Position numbers and translations under genes: made by a program. Positions 8,603 to 64,000 of a stretch of 64,000 nucleotides of DNA are shown in pieces (position 1 is the first letter of the stretch; every line of letters starts with the position of its first letter). The stretch spans positions 7,993 through 71,992 of the forward strand of contig CAZKAF010000001.1 in NCBI GenBank assembly GCA_964550955.1, written 5' to 3'. This DNA is from an uncultured Candidatus Saccharibacteria bacterium (GTDB lineage: Bacteria > Patescibacteriota > Minisyncoccia > Phycocordibacterales > CAIZLB01). The notes below the pieces were generated by a model. The model did not search any database, was not told the DNA's origin, and saw only the letters and a program-made list of their open reading frames with translations.

Positions 8603-8826
8603 TACCCCTCTAAACCACCGGCTTCAGCCGGTGTGCGCATTTAAAGACAACGTCATATTATGAATACCACCTGATCAAGCGCACGAGTTGCGTTAACTAT
8701 AATTTATAATTATCTTTGCAACAAACACCCAATGTAAGCGTTTCTTGCTGTGCAATAAAAAATCCTAATGCAGCCTTGCGCACAATTTGCGTATTCTGGA
8801 AAAAGTTGTATTATTTATGTCTCACA

Positions 8827-10041
8827 ATGATCAAAAATAATATCGTTTATAGTGAATATTGCAATTATCGATTTAAGCTAAAACGTGCCGAAGGAAGCTA
8901 TCTTTGGGATGAAAATGGCAGGAAATATATTGATTTTACCTCTGGCTGGAACGTGACAAATTTGGGCTGGAATGACCCCGAAATTAATACTGCGATAAAA
9001 GAGCAGGTAGATAAAAACGTGTTCGCGCCTTTGTGGTGTTCTGACGAAATTCAAGAGAAATACGCTCAGAGACTGACAGAGTCCTTGCCCGAACCGCTCG
9101 ATACGTGCATAAAGACAACGGGCGGAACTGAAGCCGTCGAAGTGTCAATTAAAGTTGCTCGGGCTGCCACAGGACGAAAAAAAATTATTGGTTTTAAAAA
9201 CAGTTACCATGGGCAATTGTTCGCCTCGATGGCACTTGGTTTTACAGACAATTTGGTTGAGAAAATTTTACCATTAGTGCCTGAATTTATTCAGATCGAT
9301 TATCCCAGAGACAATGGTGATAAAGAAGTATTGAATAATTTTCTCATGGACCTTGAAAAAAGGATATCAAATCACGATGTCGCGGCAATCGTTACCGAGG
9401 CAAACATGATTACTGGCTGGGGGTCTGCATTCGTCGCGCCGATTGGGTATCTCAAGGCGGTAAGGGATCTTGTTTCAAAATACGGGACCCTGCTGATCGT
9501 TGATGAAGTGGGAACTGGTTTTTCAAGAACTGGAAAATTATTTGCTATTGAGCATGAGAACGTTGTTCCAGATATGATATGTCTCGCTAAAGGCATATCG
9601 AATGGCGGCGGTGCTTTAGGGGCAGTCGTTGGCAGTTTTGACCTTATTAATAATGTGATTGGAGTCACAAACATCATATCTACTTTTGGATGGGTTCCAA
9701 CGGCTTGTGCGGCAGCGCTTAAAACACTCGAGATTCATCAAAGGGACAAGGTGTGGGAGATGGCTGATTCTAAAGGGAGATATCTTTTGTCTGAATTAAA
9801 ATCTAAGCTGGCTAACAATCCAAAGGTTGTCGACGTAAGGGGTGTGGGCATGGAGATTGGAATTGAAATTCCGGTTGATGCGACCCGGTATAATAATATT
9901 ATAGATTTTGCTGCCAAAGAGGGGTTACATTTGACTGGGGATACAGAAAGCGTGATTCAGCTTATGCCGCCTCTCACTATTTCCAAAGAAGATATTGAAA
10001 AAGGCATTGATATATTAGTTAGGACGCTTTCTTCCTGTTAA
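8827..10041 (+). CDS. Class-III PLP-dependent aminotransferase (ArgD/GabT-like), first gene of an AT-rich operon.
   Basis: LIVDEVGTGFSRTGKLFA is the class-III aminotransferase PLP-region signature, alongside the ...GGTEAVE... motif. The ORF opens at 8716 but the likely start is ATG 8827 (MIKNNIV...). Confidence 0.8.
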   Translation: MIKNNIVYSEYCNYRFKLKRAEGSYLWDENGRKYIDFTSGWNVTNLGWNDPEINTAIKEQVDKNVFAPLWCSDEIQEKYAQRLTESLPEPLDTCIKTTGGTEAVEVSIKVARAATGRKKIIGFKNSYHGQLFASMALGFTDNLVEKILPLVPEFIQIDYPRDNGDKEVLNNFLMDLEKRISNHDVAAIVTEANMITGWGSAFVAPIGYLKAVRDLVSKYGTLLIVDEVGTGFSRTGKLFAIEHENVVPDMICLAKGISNGGGALGAVVGSFDLINNVIGVTNIISTFGWVPTACAAALKTLEIHQRDKVWEMADSKGRYLLSELKSKLANNPKVVDVRGVGMEIGIEIPVDATRYNNIIDFAAKEGLHLTGDTESVIQLMPPLTISKEDIEKGIDILVRTLSSC

Positions 10042-10055
10042 TAAAATATTATATT

Positions 10056-11558
10056 ATGCCAAAAAAATTGACGCCGAGACGGAACAAGCAGAGTGGATTT
10101 TTTGATTCTTTGGCAAAGAAGAGGAGTGAGCATGTCTTTGAATGCTCGGATATTAAAACCCTAAAAGGTTTTCTTAAGAGCCATAAAGAGGTTCGTTATC
10201 CTAAAAAGTTTGCGACGACGTTATATATGTGTGGTAGAAAAAAGATTTCTGGGAAACCTAAGCCACTATCTCACGCTGCTATTAAGGTGCGTTTTTATCA
10301 TGACAAACCGATGCATAGGTTTTTTATACCTAATAAAGATGCGGCGTGTATCACCGAGATCAAGACCCGTCCCAAGGATGACTGGGGGAGTACTGTTCGC
10401 CAGAAAGCTCGCTTTGGAGTTGATAGCATTATGAGTTATCGAGACCTAGAAAACGTGTCTGAAGAAGTGCTTTCGGGAAAAAAGATTAAGAAAATCAATA
10501 ATGAGACTGTATCGTTATCCAGGTGTCTTAAAAAGATAGCGAATGAATACAATCTTGTGACGTTTGAGGCTGTAGCGGCGACATCTTACAGAAGGAGGCA
10601 TTTTGACGCGGATAATCATCGAATTACAGTTGATAGTGACATAAAGTATTATCTTACCGCTACCCACGATAGGGATACATTGTTTTCTTTAGCTAGGCGC
10701 AGACCGGGGTTTGTGCTTGAGGTAAAGGTTGAGCATGTTGGTAAAAATCTTAAGAATGACGATGGCGACCATCTTCTAAAGGAGTTAGGGAAAATACCTG
10801 GTTTAATCGCCGAACCAAACAGAAAAGGAGCAGACCTGTTAGACCTTGTGTTACAAAAAGAACATCTTTTCCATGAGCCAGAACTTAAAGCGAAGTCCTC
10901 ATCAGAGTGGCTCGTCACGGAAAGAGAGATGAAGCTGGACGCAGATAACGATTTACGCGTGCAACTTGGTGGTATACGTTTCCCAGAAAATATCGCCGTT
11001 GGGATGATAAGGAAAGACAAAAGTTATCAAAGAATATACAGTCATGGTTCTAATATTGTTTTTTCAATGCAATATAATAAAGACAGCCCACCCTCAAAAA
11101 GGGTTATCAAATATAAGATGAATCTGAAGAGTTCAAGTTCAAAAATTAGCGTCAGACAGGAGACAGTCGAGCGTTATAGTAAAAAGAGGATATCTGAAAT
11201 ATTAGGAAATCCTGTCGATGATAAGTCGACCTTGATAACGTCCTATTTCTTGAGAGACAGAGCTATCTTGTCTGTGTATCTTAGCGACACAGGGAATGTT
11301 TTTGATATTTGCGTGGATGAAGTAAACTTTATTGGTAAGAAAAAAAGTATACCATTACACCAGCTTGAAATTGAGTTTGTTGGAGTAATCGGTGACAAGG
11401 ACGGTAAAAGTTTTATCAAAAACAATGTCAGGACGATTGAGTCCGATTTTATGGTAATTAGGAAAATCATCATGCATGAATATGCTAGATTAGGCATCGC
11501 TCTGCGAGACTCTCATATTACGAAAGCGATTTGGGCGATGAACCAAGTTTCAAGATAA
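10056..11558 (+). CDS. Hypothetical Lys-rich protein. The N-terminal half has a weak CYTH/VTC-like triphosphate-tunnel pattern.
   Basis: Possible tunnel-fold motifs: KVRFY...ACITEIKTRPKD...VRQKARF, YRRRHFDADNHRITVDSDIKYY, FVLEVKVEH and C-terminal LEIEFVG. The assignment is from memory of family patterns, not a search. Confidence 0.45.
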   Translation: MPKKLTPRRNKQSGFFDSLAKKRSEHVFECSDIKTLKGFLKSHKEVRYPKKFATTLYMCGRKKISGKPKPLSHAAIKVRFYHDKPMHRFFIPNKDAACITEIKTRPKDDWGSTVRQKARFGVDSIMSYRDLENVSEEVLSGKKIKKINNETVSLSRCLKKIANEYNLVTFEAVAATSYRRRHFDADNHRITVDSDIKYYLTATHDRDTLFSLARRRPGFVLEVKVEHVGKNLKNDDGDHLLKELGKIPGLIAEPNRKGADLLDLVLQKEHLFHEPELKAKSSSEWLVTEREMKLDADNDLRVQLGGIRFPENIAVGMIRKDKSYQRIYSHGSNIVFSMQYNKDSPPSKRVIKYKMNLKSSSSKISVRQETVERYSKKRISEILGNPVDDKSTLITSYFLRDRAILSVYLSDTGNVFDICVDEVNFIGKKKSIPLHQLEIEFVGVIGDKDGKSFIKNNVRTIESDFMVIRKIIMHEYARLGIALRDSHITKAIWAMNQVSR

Positions 11559-11563
11559 ATATT

Positions 11564-12718
11564 ATGGATACCCGTAAGAACATAAAATATATTCATGATT
11601 TAATCAAGGAATCTAGGAATAAAATTATCGATATCTTGACCGATATCGAGCCGTATTCGATAGCCGAGTTTGAGATTGATTCAGCATGCACCACATTATC
11701 GGAAATCTTGAATAATGTCGACCAAGTCAGGATTGACGTCAAAAGCATCGCGGTATATTTACCCGTCAACCTGCCCCTTTATTCATTGATTCTATACGGT
11801 ATTGTTCCGAGCCTACAAGCTGAAAATGTTTATGTGCGTCCACCAGTAGAGATAGGCGACATTACGAAAAAGATACGTGACTCATTCTTCAAAACAGTCA
11901 AGAACGTGCATGTTGTGGGTTTACCGAGAAGAGCATTTGGAGATGGGTTTACAGCCTGTGCAGACGTCGTAATATTTACAGGTAGGTACGATCCAGCTCT
12001 TGACCTTATAGAAAAATATAATCCGAAACTTTTTATTTATAATGGATCTGGGGTTAATCCAATTATTGTTGCTAAAGGGGCGGACCTGTCATTAGCAGTT
12101 GAAAAAGTGATTCACGCCAGAATCTTTAACGGTGGTCAAGACTGCTGTGCTCCAGATGCCATTTTTGTGGAGGATTCGATTAAGGCAGAGTTTATGTTTT
12201 TGCTGAAGAATCAGGTTGAAAAAATTAATGTCGGCAGTTATAAAGACCCAGATGTGACAGTAGGGAAGATCTTGGACAAGAAATATATTGCATCAGCAAA
12301 GGCTTTCCTCGAGGATAAAGCAGATATGATTGTTTTTGGCGGAAAGATAGATGAAGAGGGCGGGGTTATCTACCCTACCATTATTGATGAGGTAGACCAT
12401 CAAAGATACGATGATTTTCAAGAGCTGTACGCACCCATTTTCAATATTTTAACATTCAAGACACATGATGAGGTCGAGAGGGTACTTAACTCTAGAGAGT
12501 ATCAAGATTTCGCCATGTGCTACTCCATTTTTGGTAATATTAAAATCAATGTCGCCAACACCATTTTGCTTAAAAATCAGACTCTGCTCGATGTCGAAGG
12601 TGGAAATATACCATTTGGCGGTTATGGAAAAAAATCGAGTTTTGTCAGAAAAAATGGCAAAACTTTTCCAAGACCAATCCTTATCCCCTGGGAAATAAAG
12701 ACGATCGCGGAGGCTTAA
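11564..12718 (+). CDS. Aldehyde-dehydrogenase-superfamily protein, short form (ProA/acylating-ALDH-like, N-terminally truncated relative to canonical ALDH).
   Basis: Catalytic-Cys motif NGGQDCCAPD, then GGKIDEEGGVIYPTII and PFGGYGKKSSF (the ALDH PFGG motif). It is about 385 aa versus about 480 for typical ALDH. The ORF opens at 11531 and overlaps the previous gene; ATG 11564 is the likely start. Confidence 0.6.
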   Translation: MDTRKNIKYIHDLIKESRNKIIDILTDIEPYSIAEFEIDSACTTLSEILNNVDQVRIDVKSIAVYLPVNLPLYSLILYGIVPSLQAENVYVRPPVEIGDITKKIRDSFFKTVKNVHVVGLPRRAFGDGFTACADVVIFTGRYDPALDLIEKYNPKLFIYNGSGVNPIIVAKGADLSLAVEKVIHARIFNGGQDCCAPDAIFVEDSIKAEFMFLLKNQVEKINVGSYKDPDVTVGKILDKKYIASAKAFLEDKADMIVFGGKIDEEGGVIYPTIIDEVDHQRYDDFQELYAPIFNILTFKTHDEVERVLNSREYQDFAMCYSIFGNIKINVANTILLKNQTLLDVEGGNIPFGGYGKKSSFVRKNGKTFPRPILIPWEIKTIAEA

Positions 12719-12761
12719 TAATAATATTTTAGGGGTTGTTATAATACGCACATGTATTATA

Positions 12762-14480
12762 GTGATATCAAATATTATGAAAAATGGTGAGATAATTAAG
12801 GAACTACTAATTCGTGCCGCCGAGAGTCAAAATCTTCAAATGAGGGAGGTGTTGGTCATGTTCTCAAACGACCTGTCAAATGGTGACTATTCTTCCAATA
12901 TCGCCCTAGTGGCTGCAAAGGAGATTAAGACTTCGCCTAAGGCTTTAGCTGATAAATTGGTGGCAGCTTTGTATAAAAATGGCCTGCCTAAAGAAGTAAA
13001 AAAGGTAGAAGTAGCCGGCATCGGTTTTATTAATTTCTACCTGTCTTCACGTTATATGGATGAACAGATCAAGGGTATAGTCGATCTGCCGGAAAAATAT
13101 GGCGCATCTTTGATAAATGCCGGCAAGAAAATTCTCGTTGAGCATTCAAGCCCTAACCTTTTCAAACCATTTCACATAGGCCATCTAATGAATAACACTA
13201 TTGGAGAATCAATAGCTAGGCTCGCTCAATTCTCTGGCGCAGAAGTGACAAAAATATCTTACCCTTCGGATATATCGCTCGGGATTGGAAAGGCAATATG
13301 GGCACTTAACCAAGAAGATGCGATAAGGCTTGATTCTTTTGACAGCCTTGAAGAGAAAGTCGCCTTTTTGGGCGAATGTTATGTGCGGGGTACAAATGCT
13401 TTTATTGATAATGTAAACGTTCAACAGCAGGTTAGAGATATAACAAAAAAACTTTATGACAAGGTTCCAGGTGCAGAATTTGACATGTTTGAAAAGTGTA
13501 AAGAATTGAACCTGTCGTATTTCAAGTCTATCATCGAAAAACTTGGTTCAAGTTTCGACTCTTTTATTTTTGAAAGTGAGGCTGGTGTAGAAGGCGAAAA
13601 GATTGTTTCAGAAAATATTGGCAAGGTTTTTGAGAACAGCAACGGGGCAATCATATATAGGGGTGAGGATGAGGGTTTGCATACTAGGGTATTTGTTAAT
13701 CGCGAGGGCTATCCCACATATGAATCAAAGGATATAGGGTTACTTTCATTGAAGTTCAAGCGCTACAACCCAGATATATCAATTTTTGTTACGGATAATG
13801 AACAAAGAGCATATTTTGAGGTTGTTTCTTCTGCCGCAAGTAAGATTGACAAAGATTGGAGCGATAAGACGATACATCTTACTCATGGAAGAATGACATT
13901 TAAAGGCAAAAAAATGTCATCGCGTCTAGGTGGCGTTCCCCTTGCGACGACCATAATAGATGCCGTATCTGAAGAAGTGAAAAGCCGTAAGGAAGATCTG
14001 GATAATAGTAGTGCTGAGGCGATATCAATTGGTGCGGTGAAGTTTACTGTCCTTAGGGTTATGGCAGGAAAAGACATAAATTTTGACCCAGATACGTCAC
14101 TTTCTTTTGAGGGTGATTCGGGTCCATATCTTCAATATACCGCAGTAAGAGCGGCATCAATCCTTAAGAGGGCAAAAGAGGGGAATATGGTCAGTGAGAC
14201 TGTGAATTTTACTGAGGATAGAGATATCAGCAAGGTCGAAAGAATCGTCGTGCGTTTCCCGGAAGTTGTCGATCTGGCCATAAAGGAATGGTCGCCACAT
14301 CATTTGGTAACGTATCTTTTGGAGTTGGCGCAAGCCTTCAACGGTTGGTATGTAAATACAAAAGTATTAGATTCTTCAAATCCATCGATGCAAAATAACA
14401 TCATGTTAACATCGGCTGTATATACCGTAATCAAAAACGGTCTCAGGCTTCTGGGTATCCAAGTTCCTGCGAGTATGTAG
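12762..14480 (+). CDS. argS: Arginine--tRNA ligase
   Basis: HIGH region SSPNLFKPFHIGHLMNNTIGESIARL matches the ArgS pattern (SANPTGPLHVGH...GDSLAR). There is an N-terminal Arg_tRNA_synt_N-like segment, and the C-terminus ends ...PASM as ArgS proteins do. The gene lies inside the AT-rich segment. Confidence 0.85.
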   Translation: MISNIMKNGEIIKELLIRAAESQNLQMREVLVMFSNDLSNGDYSSNIALVAAKEIKTSPKALADKLVAALYKNGLPKEVKKVEVAGIGFINFYLSSRYMDEQIKGIVDLPEKYGASLINAGKKILVEHSSPNLFKPFHIGHLMNNTIGESIARLAQFSGAEVTKISYPSDISLGIGKAIWALNQEDAIRLDSFDSLEEKVAFLGECYVRGTNAFIDNVNVQQQVRDITKKLYDKVPGAEFDMFEKCKELNLSYFKSIIEKLGSSFDSFIFESEAGVEGEKIVSENIGKVFENSNGAIIYRGEDEGLHTRVFVNREGYPTYESKDIGLLSLKFKRYNPDISIFVTDNEQRAYFEVVSSAASKIDKDWSDKTIHLTHGRMTFKGKKMSSRLGGVPLATTIIDAVSEEVKSRKEDLDNSSAEAISIGAVKFTVLRVMAGKDINFDPDTSLSFEGDSGPYLQYTAVRAASILKRAKEGNMVSETVNFTEDRDISKVERIVVRFPEVVDLAIKEWSPHHLVTYLLELAQAFNGWYVNTKVLDSSNPSMQNNIMLTSAVYTVIKNGLRLLGIQVPASM

Positions 14481-37107: not shown

Positions 37108-40100
37108 GTGTATAATGATCGCATGTCATTCTCATTTGCGGAGCGGTATAAGAAGCTCAATAAGGCCCAGAAGCAGGCCGTGGACACCATAGAGGGCCCG
37201 CTGCTCGTCGTCGCCGGTCCCGGCTCCGGAAAGACCGAAATATTGAGCCTCAGGGTGGCTCAGATTCTCAAGGAAACGCAGGCTCTGCCCTCGAACATCC
37301 TCTGCCTGACTTTCACCGATTCGGCCGCGGTGAACATGCGGGACCGCCTCTCGAAGCTTATCGGGCAGGAGGCGTATCGGGTGGCTATCCACACGTTCCA
37401 CAGCTTTGCCATCGAGTGCATCCAGAAATATCCGGAGTTCTTCTACAAGGGCGCCGTTTTCGCGCCGGCGGACCCCATTTCCCAAATAGCGATTCTTGAG
37501 GAAATTTTCGGGAATCTTTCGCATGACAATCCGCTTCGCTCGTCGCATCCGGACCAGGGGTTCGTGTATCTTTCGGACGTGTCGCGAATCATCGGCCACC
37601 TGAAGAAGGCGGGCGTCAATCCCGACGAGCTCGACGAGCTGCTCAAGGAAAACGAGATCGACATGGCGCATGTCTCGGAACTTCTCGGACCCTTGATGTC
37701 GAAGACCGTTTCGGCGAAAGTCGTGGGGGAAATTGCCGCAGCCCAAAAGCAGCTGGCTGAAAAGGCGTCGTTCAAGAATGCGCATGCCGACATACATGCA
37801 AAGACCGGCTTCCCGTCGCTTTTGCATGCCGTGGCGATCTCTCTCGAAGAGGCTCTCATCCGCGCAAGCGATTTGGGCAAGAACGAGCCCGTCTCAAAAT
37901 GGAAGGAAAAATGGTTCAAGAAAGACGATTCCGGAACCAAAGTATTTCGAGACGTTCTTTCGCTGGAGAAAATAAAAGTGGTGTCGGGCATTTACAGGCA
38001 GTACAGGGAAACGATGCACGCCCGGTCGATGTTCGACTTCGATGACATGATTCTCGACCTCATCGCGGCCATCGAATCCCATCCGCGCCTTAGACACGAT
38101 CTCCAGGAGCAGTTCCAGTACATCCTCGTCGACGAATTCCAGGACACGAACAACGCGCAGATGCGAATCATCAAGCTTGTCGCGGACGCGCCGGTGCATG
38201 AGGGGAAGCCGAACATCATGGTGGTAGGGGACGATGACCAGGCGGTGTACAAGTTCCAGGGCGCGGAGCTCTCGAACATCCTCAACTTCAGGACTTCCTT
38301 TTCCGATGTCGGCGTCGTGAACATGACTTCGAACTACAGGTCGACTCAGGACATTCTCGACGTGGCGACGCATATCATCAGGAAGGGCGAGCACCGCCTG
38401 GAGAACCTCATACCTCAGCTCGAAAAGACGCTCGTGGCGTCAAATCCTGAAATCAAGCGCGGCTCGATCGTTCATAAGGTATTTGATACGAGCCTTCACG
38501 AGCTTCACTACGTTTCGAGGCGCATCAGGTCGCTTCTCGAATCGGGCGTTTCGGCGAATGACATTGCGGTCATCTCAAGCAAGCACAGGCAGCTCGAATC
38601 GCTTGTGCCGTACATGAAGGGCGCCGGCGTGCCCATAAAGTACGAGCGCGAGCAGAACGTCTTTCTCGAGCCGCATATCGCCCAGCTCATACTCATGGGC
38701 AGGTTCGTCAATTCGATCGCCCGGCACGGAAGTTCAGAGGCTGACGAGCACTTGCCGCGAATCCTGGCATTTCCGTTCTGGGGCTTGCCGCGGATGTCCA
38801 TTTGGAATATTTCAAAGACGGCTTATGCCGAAAGAAAGACATGGCTTGAAGCCATGGTCGGGTCAGAGGACGCTCAGGTCAGGCGCATTGCCGAGTTCCT
38901 GATCGACCTCGGCGAGCGGGCGCCGGACGAGCCGCTGGAAAGCCTGCTTGATCAGATGATCGGCGCGCACGTGCAGCTTGTTCAGGAGAATGAGGACGAG
39001 GAAGTGGAAGGCGAAGAAGCGGAAACTTTCAGGGGATCGGAAAGCGCGGCTGCCGGCAAAGCGTCCGGAGCTGTCGAAAAACTTGCAGTCGACGGGGATT
39101 ACGGCAGCCCGTTCAAGTCGTATTATTTCAACAAGGAAAGATTCGATCATGCCCGCGCGGAGTACCTGTCTTTCCTGTCGAGCCTCAGGGTTTTCGTGAA
39201 GGCGCTTCGCGAGTACAAGGGGAAGGCCTCGGCGGTCGAGACCTTGAAGCTGCAGGACATGATCGACTTCGTGGACATTCATCAGAAAAACGGCGTCGCC
39301 CTGAATGACCAGAGCCCGTTTGCCAACTCGACGAATGCGGTGCATCTGCTCTCGGCGCACAAGTCAAAAGGGCTCGAGTTCGACACGGTCTTCGTGCTTT
39401 CCTGCACGGACGATGTCTGGGCGGGAAGGGGCGGAAGCAGGAAGATAACCCTGCCCGCGAACATGCCGATCGAGCCGGCAGGCGAAAGCGACGATGACAA
39501 GCTCCGGCTTTTTTATGTGGCCCTGACTCGCGCGAAAAAGAACCTTTACATAACGTCGTATAAGGTCAAGGACGACGGCAAGGAGGCGCTCATGCTGCGC
39601 TTCCTGACTTCCGACTCGGAGCTGCATGAAGAAGTGCTCAAGAAGTTATATGCCCCGGAACAGGGAGATGAAGAAATGTTCAAGGAAACATATACGCCCG
39701 AAACTCACGAATTGCTTACCGCCTCGTGGATCCTGTATCATACTCCGCCGTTTTTCGGCGAGGAACGGGCGCTCCTGAAGTCCGTGCTTGAAAACTACCA
39801 GCTTTCGGTGACGCATCTGAACAATTACTTGAACGTGGCGAAAGGCGGACCTCAGCTTTTCCTGGAACAGAACCTGCTTCGATTTCCTCAGGCCAAGAGC
39901 CCTTCCGGCTCGTTCGGAACGGCGGTGCACAGGACTTTGGAAAAGGCGGGGGTGCACGTTCGCGCCGAAGGCAAGCTGCCCGGCAAGGATGAATTCCTGG
40001 CCTGGTTCAAGGCGCATCTCGCGCACGAGAGGCTTTCAAGGGCGGACATGAGGCTGTTTGAAGGACGGGGGATTTCCGCGCTCTCGGCATTTTATGATCA

Positions 40101-40653
40101 GAAGATGGACGGGCTGCAGGCGACGGACTTGCTTGAGGTGAACTTCAAGAACCAGGGAGTCATCCTGGCAATGCCCGATTCCGTATCGAATCCTTCCTCG
40201 GCCGGTCCGGATTTTGAAATTCATCCCGCGCATTTGGCGGGAAAAATTGACCGCATCGTGAAAGTCTCCGGCGGCGAATACGAAGTTCGCGACTACAAGA
40301 CGGGAAAGCCCAAGTCCGAATGGGAAGGAAAGGACGAGTACGAGAAGATAAAGCTGCACGAGTACGGTCGCCAGCTCATGTTCTACAAGATTCTCGTCGA
40401 GCATTCCCGGGATTATTCCGATTTCAAGGTAAGCCGAGGCGTGCTGGATTTTGTCGAGCCGCATAAGAACGGCAGCGTGGTCGAGCTCCGGCTCGATATC
40501 GACCCCGAGCTGCACGAGAGAACGAAGAGGCTCGCGGCGGTCGTGTTCGGCAAGATAATGAATCTTGATTTTCCGGACGTGGCAGGGAAGTATGAGCCGA
40601 CATTGAAAGGCATCCGGCAGTTCGAGGATGATTTGCTGGAAGGAAAAATATAG
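37108..40653 (+). CDS. UvrD/PcrA-family SF1 helicase fused to a C-terminal PD-(D/E)xK (RecB/Cas4-like) nuclease domain (AddA-like).
   Basis: Q-motif/Walker A [53 protein letters not shown], YRSTQ and [13 protein letters not shown]. The C-terminus has ...[10 protein letters not shown], consistent with a RecB-type nuclease motif. Confidence 0.8.
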   Translation: [1181 protein letters not shown]

Positions 40654-55899: not shown

Positions 55900-56634
55900 A
55901 TGAGAGAAGAAACCATTGATCCGGCCCGGAAACTGACGGAATTGGCAGTTTTGGCCATCCTCATCCTGCATCGTCATTTTTACATTTCGTTTGCGAGGCG
56001 GTGGAACAGTCATCCTTCATTGGGGACTGTCAAGATTCTGGGCGCATACCTGAAATGCCCCGAAGAGGCAATCTCCGAGGCTGAAATGATAACCGCGGCG
56101 GCCATGGCGCAGGCCATCGTCAGCCGTCCTGACGGAAAGTCCGTCCGAGTGGAAGATTTGACGGAATTATTCGCCACGGCCATAACGGCCTCGACGATGA
56201 GAAAGTTCGAGGACTCCGTCCCCGAACAGGTCAGCGAGGCTGTCGGCGAAATAGTCGCGGAATTTCTTGCCGCAAAGCTGGGCTCCCAAAGCACCATGTC
56301 GCTGGCGCACAGCTTCATGGAGGGATATCAGTCCGCCTTGGCGCCGTTCGCGGGGTCATATCTGCGGATGTTCGGCCAGGGATCCTTCGCCATCGACATC
56401 CCTTCAAGCAAGGTGGACTTGCACGTCGCGCTTCATGTCCTGAAACTCTCAAAGCGAGCCGGACAGGAGTTCCTGTTCAGGGTTCGGGAACTCGTGATGA
56501 AGGGCGCCGCTCAGGAAATAGCCGCCGTCTCGAGGGACCATGCGCTGAACAGCGCCCAAGCTTTGGGGCAGCTTGGCTCTTCGGTCTGCGCCAGCATCCT
56601 GAAGGAAGCTGAATCTTCCGTCATTCCGTCGTAA
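55900..56634 (+). CDS. Hypothetical protein (244 aa)
   Basis: Clean ORF with a terminator downstream; no motif recognised. Confidence 0.4.
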   Translation: MREETIDPARKLTELAVLAILILHRHFYISFARRWNSHPSLGTVKILGAYLKCPEEAISEAEMITAAAMAQAIVSRPDGKSVRVEDLTELFATAITASTMRKFEDSVPEQVSEAVGEIVAEFLAAKLGSQSTMSLAHSFMEGYQSALAPFAGSYLRMFGQGSFAIDIPSSKVDLHVALHVLKLSKRAGQEFLFRVRELVMKGAAQEIAAVSRDHALNSAQALGQLGSSVCASILKEAESSVIPS

Positions 56635-58072: not shown

Positions 58073-58143
58073 TGCGGGATCGTCTAATGGTAGGACTGCG
58101 GATTTTGGTTCCGCCTATCTAGGTTCGAGTCCTAGTCCCGCAG
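58073..58143 (+). tRNA. tRNA-Gln(TTG)
   Basis: Acceptor TGCGGGA/TCCCGCA (a U1:A72 pair as in bacterial tRNA-Gln), D-arm GTCT-AATGGTA-GGAC, anticodon arm GCGGA-TTTTGGT-TCCGC (anticodon TTG), T-arm CTAGG-TTCGAGT-CCTAG, discriminator G, no encoded CCA. Confidence 0.8.
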
Positions 58144-58230
58144 CAACTTAGTTTTTCGTATCTAGCGACCTAGAGGGGTCAAAATACGTTAATTCCTAAA
58201 AACCCTTGTTTGTGGGATAATTGAGTCATT

Positions 58231-59454
58231 ATGAATCAGGCTCAAAAGAAAGAAAAATTCTATTTTTATAAAGGGAATATTAATGTTCTCGATAAGTTAG
58301 AAGATAAAACTAAAGAAAACATTCTCGCTCAGATTCAAAAAGAAATCTTACAGATTTTTGATGTAAAGAATTTATCTTTTTTACTTGGATCGGGCTGCTC
58401 ATCCTTTGTCAAAGAATCCGAGCAGATCGGGATTCCTACCATGGAACCTTTAGCAAAATTATTTTATGCGACACTTAATGCAGGCGATAAGGATGTTTTA
58501 AGGGATATTGTAAAGATAGATATCTCAATTGCTCCTTTTAATAACAATCTGGAAAGTTTTTTAGAAGTTTTGTTTAGCTTCAATTTTATTTATGACGTCC
58601 AGGGTGATAAAGCGCTTAAGCAAAAAATCCAGTCTTTGATTGATAAAACTAAAGAATTCATTCTTGAGAAATGTATTAACAAAGCAAATATAGCTCATAC
58701 TGATGTTATAGATTTATACAAGTTGTTTTATAAAAAACTTGTATATAGAAATAATAGCTTGTCAAAAGTTAATATTTTTACGACTAACTATGATTTGTAT
58801 TCAGAAAAGGCTTTGGACCAGCTCAGTATTTTATATAGTAATGGTTTTTCAGGAAATATAGAGAGATATTTCAATCCCACTACTTTTAACTATGCTTTCG
58901 CCGAACAGATGGAATTGAGTTCTAATAAATGGAATGTGATAGATAATTTTGTTTACCTATACAAACTTCATGGATCAGTAAATTGGGTAGAGACGGACAC
59001 AAAAGGAAAAATATTTAATATTCAAGAAATACAGGATCCAACAGAGAAAATCGAAGCATCGATGATTTACCCGACTCCTATGAAGCAGACTTCTAGTTTT
59101 GGTTCCCCGTACTCTGACTTATTTAGGGAATTTCAAAAAAAGTTAATGCAAGAAAAAAATATACTTGTAACAGCGGGGTACAGTTTTAGTGATCAACACG
59201 TTAATAATTTGATCTATCAAGCTTTAACAATCCCCACATTTCGTATTGTTATATTTCAAGATCCTGCAAAAGAAAGTATCAAAAGACTTCTAGATCTCAA
59301 TGATCCTCGTATATGGATTATTGGAGGGGAAATTGATTCAGAAAATATCCATTACTTTAGCTACATTGTTAATAACTTGTTACCTGATATTCGTCAGCAA
59401 AAAATTGAAAGTAGCATAGAGCAAGCTATAAAGAGTCTTATAGATAAAAAATAA
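58231..59454 (+). CDS. SIR2-family (SIR2_2-like) NAD+-dependent/NADase domain protein
   Basis: Rossmann Gly motif LLGSGCS, IFTTNYD and LYKLHGSVNW match the SIR2_2 defense-associated family signatures (TTNYD; HG with catalytic His). Confidence 0.75.
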   Translation: MNQAQKKEKFYFYKGNINVLDKLEDKTKENILAQIQKEILQIFDVKNLSFLLGSGCSSFVKESEQIGIPTMEPLAKLFYATLNAGDKDVLRDIVKIDISIAPFNNNLESFLEVLFSFNFIYDVQGDKALKQKIQSLIDKTKEFILEKCINKANIAHTDVIDLYKLFYKKLVYRNNSLSKVNIFTTNYDLYSEKALDQLSILYSNGFSGNIERYFNPTTFNYAFAEQMELSSNKWNVIDNFVYLYKLHGSVNWVETDTKGKIFNIQEIQDPTEKIEASMIYPTPMKQTSSFGSPYSDLFREFQKKLMQEKNILVTAGYSFSDQHVNNLIYQALTIPTFRIVIFQDPAKESIKRLLDLNDPRIWIIGGEIDSENIHYFSYIVNNLLPDIRQQKIESSIEQAIKSLIDKK

Positions 59455-59459
59455 CTCAA

Positions 59460-61487
59460 ATGATAATTGATGATAAAAAACGAGTTATTGGAAAAATAAT
59501 CTCTATAAACTCAGATAGGTTTTCAGTTGAACTTTTGAGTGGTACAAGAAACTTTAATGCAAATGGTTATGATGATATACATTATTTTGCTCAGATAAAC
59601 AGCTATGTTATTGTCCCTTATCAAAATTATTATATTGTGGCTGAAGTTGTAAGTGTGAGGGAAAAGGATGAAAAAACTCCAGAAGATATAAGGGAACAAG
59701 AACTAAATAAAAGTCATTCGATTAAATATCTTGATGTATTACCAATAGGTAGGATTTCCGAAGATAAGTTTGATTTTGGCGTATCTGTTTACCCTACATT
59801 ATACAGTGATGTTTTGTACATAAAAGATAGTGAACTAGACATTATATTTGATGTAAGAAATTATGAAGCTAATAAGTGTAATGGATGTAACTTGAATACG
59901 TGTGTTATACCAGAACACAAAACTCTAAAATATAAAAACAAAACCGCGATGCTTGCTTTGGAGATTGGAAGGTCAGCAATATTTCCAGACTACAAGGTTA
60001 AAATAAGTATCGATAAGTTTTTTGGTAGCCACTCAGCTGTATTGGGAAATACCGGAAGTGGTAAGTCTTGCACTATTTCATCCATGCTTCAGACATTGTT
60101 TAAGAAGAAAGATTTCTCTTCTCTAGGGGCAACCTTTTTAATATTTGATGTGAATGGTGAATACAAGAGCGCTTTTGAAGGATTACAAAATGCTGAAATT
60201 AAAATAAAAAATCTTAGCATTGAAGGTAAAGAAGGCTATGAGGAATTTAAGTTGCCACACCATTTTTTTAATTTAGAAGAATGGGAAATACTTTTGCAAG
60301 CAAGCGAAAAGACACAGAGACCAGTTTTAAGATCCGCCCTAGGGATAGCTACTCTATTTAGCAAAGAGGATGGTCAAAGTATCATAAAAACAAAGAACCA
60401 TATTCTTGCTACATGTATTACGTTGATAATGAGAGATGAGACTAGTAGTCCTTCGAAAAAAGATAGAATCATTTCAATTTTAAGAAAATTTAAGACAGAA
60501 GAAATTAAATTAACTAAGAAGTTTAGCGAAACACCGATTTCTTATGATAAGGGTGCAAAGACTAAGGAGGCGACAATCGAGAATAGTTTGTATGTTCATT
60601 TCGGAGAAATCATAGGTACTGATGAGCTGCATGATTATCTTGAGAGTAAGGACACAAACGGGGATTCAATATTTTTTAGGGATGATTTTGAGATGCCTAG
60701 TTATGACAAAGAAGCAGTTTTCAATTTTAATGAAATAGAAAACGCCCTAGAGCTTGCCCTGCTTTATGAAGAGGCACATGGTAATAAGCATATTAGAGAT
60801 TATTGCTCGTCACTTCTTACAAGATTTAAAAGTATAAAGGAAAGAAGTGATTTTAATTTTATTAAGGAGAAAGCCACTCTATCAAAAGAAAAGTATTTAG
60901 AAGATTTGTTGGGAATCAGTAAAAGTAAAAAGACTTCACAAGTAATTATTCTCGATTTGAACTCAGTCGAGGACGAGCTAATTGAGATTGTTTCAACTGT
61001 GGTAACAAGAATAATCTTTGATAAATTGAAAAGTTTAAAAAATAGAAATATTTTCCCAGTGAATCTTATCCTAGAAGAAGCCCATCGATATATATCAAAT
61101 GAGCCTCAGCGAAATTTTCTTAAAGAAAATCGAGTCTTTGATAGGGTTGCAAAAGAGGGAAGGAAGTATGGTCTATTCTTTTTGATATCTTCTCAGCGGC
61201 CTAGCGAATTATCTCGAACAGTTTTGTCTCAGTGTAATAACTTTATAGTTCATCGTATTCAAAACCCTGATGACTTGTCTCATATTAGACAGATTACACC
61301 TCATATCTCTGAGACTACATTGAGAAAGTTACCTTCAATACCTACACAGCATGCATTAATATTTGGGGGAGCTGTAAATATTCCGGCCTTATTTAAGGTC
61401 AATAATGCTGATCCATTGCCAAATAGTGATAACAATAAAGTAAGTGAGAATTGGTTTATAGCCAAAAACCAAGAAATTAAGTTTTAG
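59460..61487 (+). CDS. HerA-like (FtsK/HerA superfamily) ATPase
   Basis: Walker A HSAVLGNTGSGKSCT, Walker B VNLILEEAHRYI, an N-terminal HAS-barrel-like region and ISSQRPSEL (arginine finger region). 675 aa and 5 nt downstream of the SIR2 gene. Confidence 0.8.
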   Translation: MIIDDKKRVIGKIISINSDRFSVELLSGTRNFNANGYDDIHYFAQINSYVIVPYQNYYIVAEVVSVREKDEKTPEDIREQELNKSHSIKYLDVLPIGRISEDKFDFGVSVYPTLYSDVLYIKDSELDIIFDVRNYEANKCNGCNLNTCVIPEHKTLKYKNKTAMLALEIGRSAIFPDYKVKISIDKFFGSHSAVLGNTGSGKSCTISSMLQTLFKKKDFSSLGATFLIFDVNGEYKSAFEGLQNAEIKIKNLSIEGKEGYEEFKLPHHFFNLEEWEILLQASEKTQRPVLRSALGIATLFSKEDGQSIIKTKNHILATCITLIMRDETSSPSKKDRIISILRKFKTEEIKLTKKFSETPISYDKGAKTKEATIENSLYVHFGEIIGTDELHDYLESKDTNGDSIFFRDDFEMPSYDKEAVFNFNEIENALELALLYEEAHGNKHIRDYCSSLLTRFKSIKERSDFNFIKEKATLSKEKYLEDLLGISKSKKTSQVIILDLNSVEDELIEIVSTVVTRIIFDKLKSLKNRNIFPVNLILEEAHRYISNEPQRNFLKENRVFDRVAKEGRKYGLFFLISSQRPSELSRTVLSQCNNFIVHRIQNPDDLSHIRQITPHISETTLRKLPSIPTQHALIFGGAVNIPALFKVNNADPLPNSDNNKVSENWFIAKNQEIKF

Positions 61488-61492
61488 TTGAT

Positions 61493-62815
61493 TTATTCTA
61501 AAATTACTTTTTTGTGTATTAAAATCAACTTACTCTTGAACGATTGCATGAGTTCTCGCTTCTCCTCAACGGTTCCTTCTTTAAGTAAGTATTTTGCATA
61601 AGCTCTAACGTCAATCTTACTTTGCTTGTCTTCCTGATCTCGGGTGAGTCCTAGCACTTTATTTCTGAAGTTATTGAACCTACCCATTTCCAGCTCGAGC
61701 TTCTGCCGCACTCCGATCTTGTCCAGATCAATCTTCTCAATGATTTCGATGAGCTGCGTAATTAATTGTTGCTCGGGCAGGTAAGTGTTCTTGCAGTATT
61801 TGTCATAGAAGCGAGTGCAGCTGTAGTAGATATGTTTTCTTTGCGTGCCGTCGATAAGGCCTTTGAATTTCTCTTGCGCACAGACTCCTGAGTTGCAGAG
61901 TCCGCACTTCATCAATCTCGTGAATGCGAATTCCTTTCTAGTCGGTCCCTTAGGTTTGTTCATGTCCAGTTTCTCCTGAACCTTTTTGAATAGCTCTTGG
62001 CTGATGATCGGCTCATGCTGGCCTACAAACCATTTGCCGCTTTTCCTGGGATATTCAAGAAGTCCGCAGTAGAGGGGGTTCCTGAGAACTGTGAATATAT
62101 TTCCAAGTGAGAATGGCTTATTCCCTCTGGTCTTGAATTTGAGGTCTTCCTTCATCCATCTGTACAGATCCCGTCCGCTCCATTTCTCGTATGCGACTTT
62201 CTCGAACATGATTTTGATCGCATGGGCTCTCTGGGGATCCTGAATGATATGGCATTTCTTCGTCCTGTCCGGATGGTTCAGATATCCGGTAGGGGCGACG
62301 GATGGCCAGAGCCCCATCTCGATTCTTGTACGAAGCCCTCGCTTAACGTTGATGCTCTTGTTGTCGTTCTCAAGCTTTGCTTGTGAGCCGAGGATCATCA
62401 GCAAGAATTTCTCATTCGGATTATTCGTGAACTTCTGGCTATATGTCCTGATTTCGATTAGCTTCTTCTGGTCGAGAAGATCTACGAGTGCACCGAGATC
62501 TCCAGCGTTACGCGCAAGGCGATCAGGATGCCATACGAGTATTCCTGTGAACTTTCCCATTCGGATATCGGCAAGAAGCTGGTTGTAGACAGGGCGCTGC
62601 CCGCAGTCTTTTGCCGAATGGGATTCTCTGTAGATTTGCCCGACTTCCAGCCCGTTCTTCTGGGCAAGCTCCAGCATTTCCTTCACTTGGGAATCGATGG
62701 ACAAAGCCTGCTTTTCTTCCGCTTCGCTCGACTTGCGGGCATACAGGGCGTATTTGGTGGTTATTAATGGCTCGACCTCGTCAGGAGTCACTTGTAGCGG
62801 GTTTTGTATTTGCAC
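61493..62815 (-). CDS. Large serine recombinase (resolvase/integrase family)
   Basis: N-terminal resolvase domain YALYARKSSEAEEKQALSIDSQ (catalytic Ser), VWHPDRLAR, a recombinase domain and a C-terminal zinc ribbon (CGLC...SCTRFYDKYC) plus coiled coil. Confidence 0.85.
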   Translation of the reverse strand: MQIQNPLQVTPDEVEPLITTKYALYARKSSEAEEKQALSIDSQVKEMLELAQKNGLEVGQIYRESHSAKDCGQRPVYNQLLADIRMGKFTGILVWHPDRLARNAGDLGALVDLLDQKKLIEIRTYSQKFTNNPNEKFLLMILGSQAKLENDNKSINVKRGLRTRIEMGLWPSVAPTGYLNHPDRTKKCHIIQDPQRAHAIKIMFEKVAYEKWSGRDLYRWMKEDLKFKTRGNKPFSLGNIFTVLRNPLYCGLLEYPRKSGKWFVGQHEPIISQELFKKVQEKLDMNKPKGPTRKEFAFTRLMKCGLCNSGVCAQEKFKGLIDGTQRKHIYYSCTRFYDKYCKNTYLPEQQLITQLIEIIEKIDLDKIGVRQKLELEMGRFNNFRNKVLGLTRDQEDKQSKIDVRAYAKYLLKEGTVEEKRELMQSFKSKLILIHKKVILE

Positions 62816-62991: not shown

Positions 62992-64000
62992 ATGGTTTCT
63001 AGCCAGAAAAAATTGGAGAATTTACTTCGCAGACACAGTGTAATAGCTGAGGATGGTTTTTTTCTTATTTCGTTTATTTATATAAAGAAACACATTTTTA
63101 ATATCAAGGAATCAAATCTAGAAGAGATATTTAAAAAAGGAGATAAGATATTTAAAAAAATTAGCGCCGATAAGAATCTTGTTGCCTTTTTGGATGAGAT
63201 TGTTTTGTTAGATCCGTATGGAGAGCATTTGCCCGTATGGTATCAATTTTTTCTAAGCAGAAGATTTAGAGGTAATTCAGGTAAATTTTTTACACCTCGA
63301 TCAATTGCTAAGGCAATGGCAGACCTTCTGCCCATTAAAAAAGATGCGATCGTAATGGACCCTACTTGTGGAGGAGGAACCTTTTTATTGGAAGTGTCGA
63401 AAAGATGGGGAAATACACCCGTACATCTTGTGGGTAATGATTTAGATGAATCATTAATTGATTTATCCACTTTGGTTTTATCTATTGGTACGCAAAAGAA
63501 TCATAAGAAATCATTTTTAAATACAGACATCTATGAATCTCAGAAGTTCGGTATCTGGAAAGGAAAAGTTGATTACATTCTTGCTAACCCTCCTTTTTCT
63601 TTGCCGATAAAACAAGTTGAGTCTGGGAGCAATCTCTTTAATTTGGGCTATAAAACAAGCGATGCTGTTTTTCTAGATATATGCAAAGATCTTTTAAAAG
63701 ATGATGGTACTCTTGTTTGTCTGCTTCCTCATTCAATTATTGCTAATGCGGAGTATCAGCGTTTGAGAGAAGTTGTTGAGAATGACTGGAATCTTTTGGG
63801 GGTTATCGGTATGCCAGAAGGAATATTTCATCTCACAGCGGGAACTACAGCAAGGGCAGACATTGTAATGTTAAAAAAGAAAGGTAAAAAATCTCTCTCG
63901 GAATCAAAAACTTTTTTTGGATTTGCTCCTTCGATAGGGATACCTTTCAATAATAGACTAGCAACCTCAACAAAGAACGAATTGCAAGATCTTGTTAATA
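62992..64000 (+). CDS. N6-adenine DNA methyltransferase (HsdM/N6_Mtase family), 3'-truncated by the window edge.
   Basis: Hand translation of frame 1 from ATG 62992 gives GKFFTPRSIAKAMADLL (HsdM-type FxTPR), VMDPTCGGGTFLL (motif I) and ILANPPFS (NPPF motif IV). It is absent from the ORF track because no stop lies within the window. Confidence 0.75.
   Translation, partial: MVSSQKKLENLLRRHSVIAEDGFFLISFIYIKKHIFNIKESNLEEIFKKGDKIFKKISADKNLVAFLDEIVLLDPYGEHLPVWYQFFLSRRFRGNSGKFFTPRSIAKAMADLLPIKKDAIVMDPTCGGGTFLLEVSKRWGNTPVHLVGNDLDESLIDLSTLVLSIGTQKNHKKSFLNTDIYESQKFGIWKGKVDYILANPPFSLPIKQVESGSNLFNLGYKTSDAVFLDICKDLLKDDGTLVCLLPHSIIANAEYQRLREVVENDWNLLGVIGMPEGIFHLTAGTTARADIVMLKKKGKKSLSESKTFFGFAPSIGIPFNNRLATSTKNELQDLVN

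Follow-up and report, generated by a model that had tools for sequence, protein, structure and literature searches.

A predicted SIR2-HerA antiphage gene pair in an AT-rich island beside tRNA-Gln of a Paceibacterota bacterium

The stretch of DNA analysed here, 64,000 nucleotides (nt) of contig CAZKAF010000001.1 (the whole of which we call the window), carries two adjacent genes for a SIR2-family protein and a HerA-like ATPase. It is very probable that they form a functional two-gene SIR2-HerA abortive-infection system, horizontally acquired as cargo of a serine-recombinase integrative element on the 3' side of a glutamine transfer RNA (tRNA) gene, tRNA-Gln(TTG), in a Paceibacterota chromosome. 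The anatomy of the pair, its family, its residues, the pairing itself, the composition and the context are observations, and they are presented below in that order.

Anatomy and family of the gene pair

The first gene (58231-59454, forward strand, ATG start) encodes a 407-amino-acid (aa) SIR2_2-family protein, the predicted nicotinamide adenine dinucleotide (NAD+) glycohydrolase (NADase) effector. In the list of open reading frames (ORFs) it is separated by 5 nt from the second, co-oriented gene (59460-61487, forward strand, ATG start), whose 675-aa product is a HerA/FtsK-type P-loop ATPase, predicted to act as a hexameric platform, sensor and activator. An initial annotation, made from the letters alone, had described the pair as a 407-aa SIR2_2-like protein with TTNYD, LHGS and a Gly-rich loop, followed 5 nt later by a 675-aa HerA/FtsK-fold ATPase with Walker A and B motifs, and it had suggested comparison with Pfam and defence-system profiles. 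Both descriptions are borne out by these comparisons. The first protein matches Pfam SIR2_2 with 45.2 bits (cut-off 24.5), its sole Pfam domain, and the second matches DUF87, the HerA central domain, with 85.8 bits (cut-off 23.2), while FtsK, TrwB and HAS-barrel stay sub-threshold. The PADLOC models PDLC04084 for SIR2 (472.9 bits, residues 6-406) and PDLC04102 for HerA (844.1 bits, residues 1-672) are matched over the full length, far above chance (expectation values, E, of 1e-142 and 1e-254), and the other PADLOC SIR2 and HerA models score lower. Since these profiles are covered end to end, a defence-system database already includes this clade, and automatic callers should recognise it. The top NCBIfam matches of the two proteins are likewise the antiphage equivalogs SIR2_antiphage and HerA_antiphage.

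The motifs expected of each family are in place on the forward strand. In the SIR2 protein they are the Gly-rich NAD-binding loop GSGCS (aa 53-57; 58387-58401), which aligns to GSGCST of SaSir2 from the Staphylococcus aureus SaSir2-HerA system, TTNYD (aa 184-188; 58780-58794), with the predicted catalytic N186 and the ribose-contacting T185, and LHGS (aa 246-249; 58966-58977), with the predicted catalytic H247. HerA has a Walker A motif, GNTGSGKS (aa 196-203; 60045-60068), and a Walker B motif, LILEE (aa 536-540; 61065-61079). We aligned 30 family sequences for each protein (alignments A1 for SIR2 and A2 for HerA). G53, G55, C56, S57, S58, T185, N186, H247 and Y317 of SIR2 are invariant, as are all eight Walker A residues of HerA (G196-S203) and L538, E539 and E540 of Walker B, so the histidine of LHGS and the Walker residues, whose conservation the initial annotation had left to be checked, are kept throughout. 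Downstream of Walker B, an SQRP motif (aa 578-581) contains R580, also invariant, which is a candidate arginine finger, its assignment being inferred.

A phmmer alignment pairs T225/N226, H287, Y352 and H412/Y413 of SaSir2 with T185/N186, H247, Y317 and H374/Y375 of the window SIR2. In SaSir2, N226 and H287 are catalytic and required for NADase activity, and T48, S55, T225, H412, Y413 and other residues are ADP-ribose (ADPR) contacts needed for it (PMC11514289). Y352 is a further ADPR contact. Among the equivalents of these contacts H374 is nearly invariant in the SIR2 family alignment, and Y375 is the exception, being neither invariant nor nearly so. Measured against the family profiles, both ORFs are complete (SIR2 matches over residues 6-406 of its 407, HerA over 1-672 of its 675), with no frameshift or internal stop, and judged by its sequence the pair is intact, without sign of decay.

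Searches against the sequences of the PDB point to the same family. The SIR2 protein has only three distinct matches, all of them SIR2 proteins of SIR2-HerA systems: 8yhx_G, SaSir2 (E 8e-39), 8j4u/8su9, Escherichia coli Nezha, and 8w9l, from Paenibacillus. For HerA the best match is 8yho_A, SaHerA (E 8e-48), followed by the HerA of DUF4297-HerA systems, that of other SIR2-HerA systems and then archaeal repair HerA. AlphaFold2 monomer models, built from the two family alignments and searched with Foldseek against the PDB, gave a concordant result. The SIR2 model is of moderate quality (predicted local distance difference test, pLDDT, 65.5). Its 39 best PDB matches are SIR2 chains of SIR2-HerA entries (E 6e-18 to 8e-10), the free SIR2 entries 8sxx and 8w9l among them, and the matches to KomC, ThsA and DSR2 are weaker (E 1e-6 to 1e-4; ThsA and DSR2 1e-4 to 1e-5). 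The HerA model (pLDDT 73.7, predicted template modelling score 0.74) combines a six-stranded beta block at the N-terminus (residues 9-106) with a helical region and a RecA-like core, and it finds its best match in 8yhx_A, the SaHerA of the SaSir2-HerA complex (E 2e-30 over 649 aligned columns; template modelling score 0.76, normalised to the target). On the evidence of profiles, sequence searches and predicted folds, the pair is a diverged member of the known SIR2-HerA antiphage family, and the SIR2-HerA architecture proposed in the initial annotation is upheld, the nearest solved structures being SIR2-HerA complexes and the pairing being kept in related loci.

Other families that use one of the two components were tried and rejected. 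A DUF4297-HerA system was set aside since the partner upstream is a SIR2_2 protein and the gene downstream encodes a serine recombinase. Thoeris ThsA (a SLOG fusion with a TIR partner) and DSR2 (about 1000 aa) were set aside on account of the 407-aa length of the protein and its SIR2_2 domain alone. An archaeal HerA-NurA repair module was rejected because a Pfam scan of the neighbours found only SIR2, serine recombinase, methylase and DnaX.

A broader version of this last idea is that HerA and SIR2 serve in DNA repair or housekeeping, as archaeal HerA-NurA does, or that the SIR2 protein is a deacylase or ADP-ribosyltransferase and no NADase. Some SIR2 families are indeed protein-modifying enzymes, and HerA does match archaeal repair HerA, at lower scores (NF040937, 119.7 bits; PDB 4d2i, E 5e-27). 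We find this scarcely credible. Repair HerA models reach 104-120 bits, several-fold below the 844 bits of the defence HerA model, and the neighbours are a tRNA, a recombinase and a methylase, with no NurA or Mre11/Rad50 partner. The distribution of the family over plasmids, viral contigs and AT-rich islands is patchy and mobile, which would be unexpected of a housekeeping gene, and the SIR2 fold is closest to the NADase-type defence SIR2 proteins.

Two segments of HerA deserve mention in their own right. Between the N-terminal beta domain and the ATPase core, a loop modelled with low confidence contains the sequence CNGCNLNTC (aa 139-147; 59874-59900); the family consensus keeps two of its Cys positions in part, and this insert could be a metal-binding site. 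A beta-rich insertion at aa ~354-424 (60519-60731), within the helical region, has no SaHerA alignment across it and accounts for much of the extra length of the window HerA over SaHerA.

Conservation of the two-gene unit

A scan of genome contigs with HerA recovered relatives of 54-62% identity in Bacteroidota and Campylobacterota. Ten related loci (L001-L010), comprising two metagenome contigs whose HerA is 82% identical and eight genomes of these two phyla, were searched by tblastn, and in 10 of 10 a SIR2 homologue (47-70% identity) ends immediately before the HerA homologue (54-82%). The same order, SIR2 directly upstream of HerA, is found in all four of the closest loci from IMG/VR (L044-L047), which brings the total to 14 of 14; overall, HerA relatives of the clade with an upstream SIR2 occur on four to five IMG/VR contigs. 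The spacing of 5 nt, typical of the operon in this family, recurs in L001. Clustering of all ORFs of the related loci yielded no third conserved gene, SIR2 and HerA alone being common to them, and a three-component system was rejected on this ground.

Plasmids of Alphaproteobacteria and Actinobacteria carry homologues of 41-46% identity that have a 'SIR2 family protein' next to them; homologues paired in this way are found on plasmids of many phyla, and more distant ones on hundreds of plasmids. The clade is also richer in adenine and thymine (AT-rich) than its flanks in unrelated hosts, Bacteroidota among them, the guanine plus cytosine (GC) fraction being 0.28-0.31 against ~0.47 in L003 and 0.36 against 0.55 in L001. 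As a separate observation, in L001 (3249-4904) and L010 (13837-15451) a different large serine recombinase, 25-34% identical to that of the window, runs into the 3' end of a tRNA gene convergent with it and overlaps it (tRNA-His in the former, tRNA-Arg in the latter), and SIR2-HerA lies 3.8-3.9 kb inside each element.

Foreign composition, integration site and the neighbouring recombinase

The RpoB protein encoded in the window is 96% identical to a 'Candidatus Paceibacterota bacterium' protein, and its identity to many sequences of Parcubacteria and Patescibacteria is 74-88%, which supports assigning the host to the Paceibacterota within the candidate phyla radiation (CPR); it agrees with the small-genome lineage that the initial annotation had suggested. 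Against this background the pair is clearly foreign in composition, in keeping with the earlier claim, and very probably a horizontally acquired AT-rich cargo. Its GC is 0.321, compared with a mean of 0.513 for same-sized windows in the rest of the sequence (standard deviation 0.042, minimum 0.389). GC at third codon positions (GC3) is 0.27-0.28 in SIR2 and HerA, compared with 0.72-0.76 in the nearby genes for DnaX and the P-type ATPase and 0.57-0.76 in the neighbours overall, and the tetranucleotide distance of the pair from the window background is 0.70, the maximum elsewhere being 0.50. Low GC alone is no mark of foreign DNA in this genome, because the housekeeping arginyl-tRNA synthetase gene sits in another AT-rich block. 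This second block (8716-14480; GC 0.38-0.44, GC3 ~0.39-0.40) also holds a class-III aminotransferase, a 500-aa ORF without Pfam match and an aldehyde dehydrogenase.

Within 200 nt after tRNA-Gln (anticodon TTG; 58073-58144, forward strand; identified by ARAGORN, Rfam tRNA 58.1 bits) the GC drops from 0.57-0.60 to 0.29, and the tRNA stands at the left boundary of the AT-rich island and is the probable target of its integration. A metagenome scan with DnaX gave 18 loci, in seven of which tRNA-Gln(ttg) follows DnaX as it does in the window. In L021, L022 and L024, of which the first two are assemblies of one region and the third is independent, all from source genomes of 53-57% GC, the GC falls to 0.32-0.45 directly after the tRNA. 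The low-GC stretches extend over 1256-9100 in L021/L022, where GC is back at 0.53 about 8 kb on, and over 1349-3400 in L024. The cargo of L022 is unlike that of the window, with a sodium:solute symporter, Fic/DOC, an AbiEii toxin, a GDSL lipase and a NUDIX-ASCH protein ahead of BipA, and the 3' end of the tRNA is repeated perfectly over 15 nt, in direct orientation, 3.3 kb downstream. Because related Paceibacterota contigs carry different low-GC cargo at this position, the site after tRNA-Gln is a recurrent insertion point for foreign cargo in the lineage. A 207-kb metagenome contig of another relative (L012, tRNA at 12173-12244) stops precisely with the 3' end of the tRNA-Gln(ttg) that follows DnaX, an assembly break that is consistent with strain-variable sequence there.

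On the far side of the pair lies a convergent gene for a large serine recombinase of 440 aa (61493-62815, reverse strand; Pfam Resolvase PF00239, 89.7 bits; Recombinase PF07508, 59.9 bits), with a Zn_ribbon_recom (PF13408) match of 20.6 bits, under the 25.3 cut-off. It matches PHROG 95, 'integrase', with 233 bits and is the probable integrase of the element. Beyond it an N6-adenine DNA methyltransferase gene (62992-64000, forward strand), of which the N-terminal 336 aa are present before it runs off the window end, encodes an NPPF motif and matches Pfam N6_Mtase (90.2 bits) and Eco57I (29.8 bits). With a GC3 of 0.283, matching SIR2 and HerA, it adds to the AT-rich cargo of the island. All three neighbours named in the initial annotation as flanking a tRNA-adjacent, AT-rich island, namely the tRNA, the serine recombinase and the restriction-type methylase, are therefore present.

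Relatives of the recombinase illuminate this arrangement. Fifteen, of 42-64% identity, were found on IMG/VR contigs (L029-L043), and in at least nine of these genes for a ParB-methyltransferase, TerS and TerL stand directly upstream on the same strand, so the recombinase family is phage-associated. Four have a convergent tRNA (Gln, Ser, Ser, Asn) 0.1-4.3 kb past the recombinase stop: in L034 a tRNA-Gln(ctg) at 117 nt, followed by host sequence, in L032 and L041 at 1.7 kb, and in L040 at 4.3 kb. The stretch past the recombinase stop varies among the relatives and is often defence-related: L040 has a type II methylase and a 498-aa protein there, L039 has type III Res and Mod, L038 has type II methylases, and L035 has a GajB-like helicase; in L032 a complete type I restriction-modification (RM) system is on the other side of the recombinase. 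The geometry of the window is like theirs, with tRNA-Gln, a 3.35-kb SIR2-HerA module and the convergent recombinase. As a tentative generalisation, this recombinase family may define phage-derived integrative elements of CPR and other uncultivated bacteria that insert at tRNA 3' ends and keep an exchangeable defence slot between the integrase stop and the tRNA.

These relatives also raise the possibility that the pair is cargo of a prophage or satellite that serves superinfection exclusion. The recombinase would then be the integrase of a CPR phage or prophage continuing past the window, and SIR2-HerA would occupy an accessory slot between integrase and attachment (att) site and protect the lysogen, the molecular mechanism being the same and only the owner different. 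The integrase match to PHROG 95, the phage genes beside its relatives, the tRNA-Gln of L034 with host sequence beyond it, the RM and helicase cargo in the slot elsewhere and the clade HerA with upstream SIR2 on IMG/VR contigs all speak for it, as do the mere 5 nt between the stop codons of HerA and the recombinase, which leave no room for a second att site. The window, however, contains no phage structural or packaging gene, and a divergent N6-methylase, not TerL, stands upstream of the recombinase. The GC3 of the recombinase (0.58, against 0.27-0.28 in SIR2, HerA and the methylase) suggests a mosaic origin, and 'viral' calls in IMG/VR can include non-phage islands, such as L032, which is mostly a type I RM system. 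We therefore regard prophage ownership as possible but doubtful, and prefer to describe the pair as cargo of a serine-recombinase integrative element.

Two further genes of the window may be recorded here. Between the P-type ATPase and DnaX genes, a 244-aa ORF (55900-56634) has host-like GC and no Pfam match, and at 37108-40653 a 1181-aa AddA-like protein, in which a UvrD-type helicase is fused to a PD-(D/E)XK nuclease, is probably ordinary repair machinery.

Proposed mechanism and comparison with known systems

Several results weigh against reading the locus as a functional SIR2-HerA system brought in by an integrative element. The clade lies far from all characterised systems, its identity to the S. 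aureus proteins being ~24-26%. The NCBIfam equivalogs are not reached, SIR2 scoring 123.2 bits against NF042942 (cut-off 500) and HerA 215 and 203.7 bits against NF042943 and NF042944 (cut-offs 800 and 850); because these scores fall so far under the cut-offs, the pair, though homologous to these families, belongs to a different subfamily from that of the equivalogs. The mechanistic details may not transfer, since the characterised subtypes differ in HerA activity and trigger (PMC13434337). The SIR2 model is poor over residues 204-295, which include H247. With regard to the element, no repeat of the tRNA-Gln 3' end was found in the window (seed-9 repeats; 23-mer with 3 mismatches), the right end of the island lying beyond position 64000. 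The recombinase itself is host-like (GC 0.466, GC3 0.578) amid SIR2, HerA and methylase genes with GC3 of ~0.28; the island is mosaic on this account, AT-rich genes lying on both sides of a recombinase of host-like composition, and the recombinase may not share its origin with its cargo.

The N-terminal domain of HerA belongs among these points as well. The initial annotation had staked the HerA reading on HAS-barrel homology, and on this the evidence is divided: the Pfam HAS-barrel match reaches 14.6 bits (cut-off 25.2), and a profile of the N-terminal 135 residues (alignment A3) found nothing significant among PDB sequences. In its favour, the alignments of four PADLOC HerA profiles start at residues 1-6, a weak phmmer domain joins residues 10-131 to SaHerA 4-121 (17 bits), and the model places a six-strand beta domain there, at pLDDT 45-74 only. 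Taking sequence and model together, a HAS-barrel is weakly supported, and we lean towards its being present.

Signals for expression complete the list. Promoter and terminator scans at the locus gave counts equal to the shuffled expectation and are uninformative, no Shine-Dalgarno sequence is obvious ahead of either start codon, and an Rfam scan of the window found three tRNAs only, with no riboswitch or small RNA at the locus. Together with the strongly foreign composition, which suggests recent arrival, the lack of a convincing promoter, terminator or Shine-Dalgarno sequence could mean that the pair is a decaying or silenced remnant, kept through a recent insertion and without current defence function. 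This is most improbable, given that both ORFs are full length against the family profiles and uninterrupted, that all invariant catalytic and motif residues of the family are retained, and that the family-typical 5-nt operon spacing is preserved as in L001.

For a functional SIR2-HerA system, a mechanism can be proposed from the systems of S. aureus, E. coli (Nezha) and Paenibacillus. In the published scheme a SIR2 dodecamer binds a hexamer of HerA, which opens the active site of SIR2; ATP inhibits the complex, and inhibition is relieved by phage proteins (single-strand-binding proteins in one E. coli subtype), DNA ends and ATP consumption (PMC11514289, PMC11472057, PMC13434337). By homology we infer for the window pair a 12:6 assembly, NADase activity, a comparable trigger and an abortive outcome. 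HerA, with its putative N-terminal beta-barrel, helical insertion and RecA-like ATPase, would form a hexamer that docks onto a SIR2 dodecamer in a 12:6 complex, which ATP binding would hold quiet in the uninfected cell. When a phage infects, its protein or a DNA intermediate would, along with the consumption of ATP, set free the SIR2 NADase, acting via N186 and H247, and possibly, depending on the subtype, a HerA-associated nuclease or helicase activity. NAD+ would be hydrolysed to ADPR and nicotinamide, and the resulting collapse of NAD+ would stop growth of the infected cell before the phage has produced progeny.

The SIR2-HerA family has been well characterised, and the pair is of a common kind, its host and position making it only modestly noteworthy. 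The tiny genomes of Paceibacterota were for a long time believed to hold few defence systems. The defence systems of CPR bacteria, especially Paceibacteria, have already been surveyed, with SIR2 and HerA unmentioned in the main text (PMC12259885), and we found no literature joining Patescibacteria, SIR2 and defence systems. The locus adds a well-preserved, diverged SIR2-HerA, with ~25% identity to any solved system, to the short list of recognisable abortive-infection systems of Paceibacterota. It also illustrates a route of arrival: the cargo is AT-rich and sits at a site after tRNA-Gln that holds other cargo in relatives, with a phage-type serine integrase next to it. If the tentative generalisation on the recombinase family holds, an obligate episymbiont with a genome of ~0.7 Mb or more would carry an NAD+-destroying suicide system, possibly phage-borne. 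The finding leaves the knowledge of how SIR2-HerA works unchanged, and the longer HerA of the clade could serve comparative structural work on the gating of SIR2 by HerA. It is of modest interest for its host, for its distance from the solved systems, for the greater length of HerA and for the cargo slot between integrase and tRNA.

The PADLOC families PDLC04084 and PDLC04102 are bioinformatic families, and we know of no member of this clade that has been experimentally tested. Among the known systems, SaSir2-HerA from S. aureus (8YHO/8YHX; PMC11514289) is the best solved match for both proteins, in sequence and in predicted fold. It shares with the window pair the gene order, SIR2 then HerA, the catalytic Asn/His pair, several of the ADPR-contact residues and the Walker A and B motifs. 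The identity is no more than ~24-26% overall, the N-terminal half of SIR2 is barely alignable by sequence, and the ADPR contact E382 of SaSir2 is replaced by Lys. The window HerA is 113 aa longer than SaHerA (675 against 562 aa), with extra segments at residues ~132-165, which contain Cys and are of low confidence, and at ~354-424, which are beta-rich.

The Nezha or SIR2-HerA systems of E. coli (8J4U, 8SU9 and others) have the same architecture and fold class, with Foldseek E values of 1e-16 to 1e-17 for SIR2 and ~1e-24 for HerA, at ~19-22% identity, and the same logic of an ATP-gated NADase is expected for the window pair. The E. coli Sir2-HerA types I-III differ in HerA activity (helicase/nuclease or nickase), trigger and phage spectrum, and the HerA proteins of these subtypes are not interchangeable (PMC13434337). 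The HerA of DUF4297-HerA (9C1M, 8XAU, 8ZIQ) is nearly as similar to the window HerA as that of SIR2-HerA (E 1e-43 to 2e-39 in sequence and 1e-28 in fold), but its partner is a DUF4297 nuclease, whereas that of the window is a SIR2_2 protein. Finally, the phage-type large serine recombinases (PHROG 95; CcrB/XisF-like) have the Resolvase and Recombinase domains in common with the window recombinase, whose Zn-ribbon is weak. In its relatives the integrase stands at the end of the element, convergent to a tRNA, while in the window the SIR2-HerA module lies between the recombinase stop and the tRNA.

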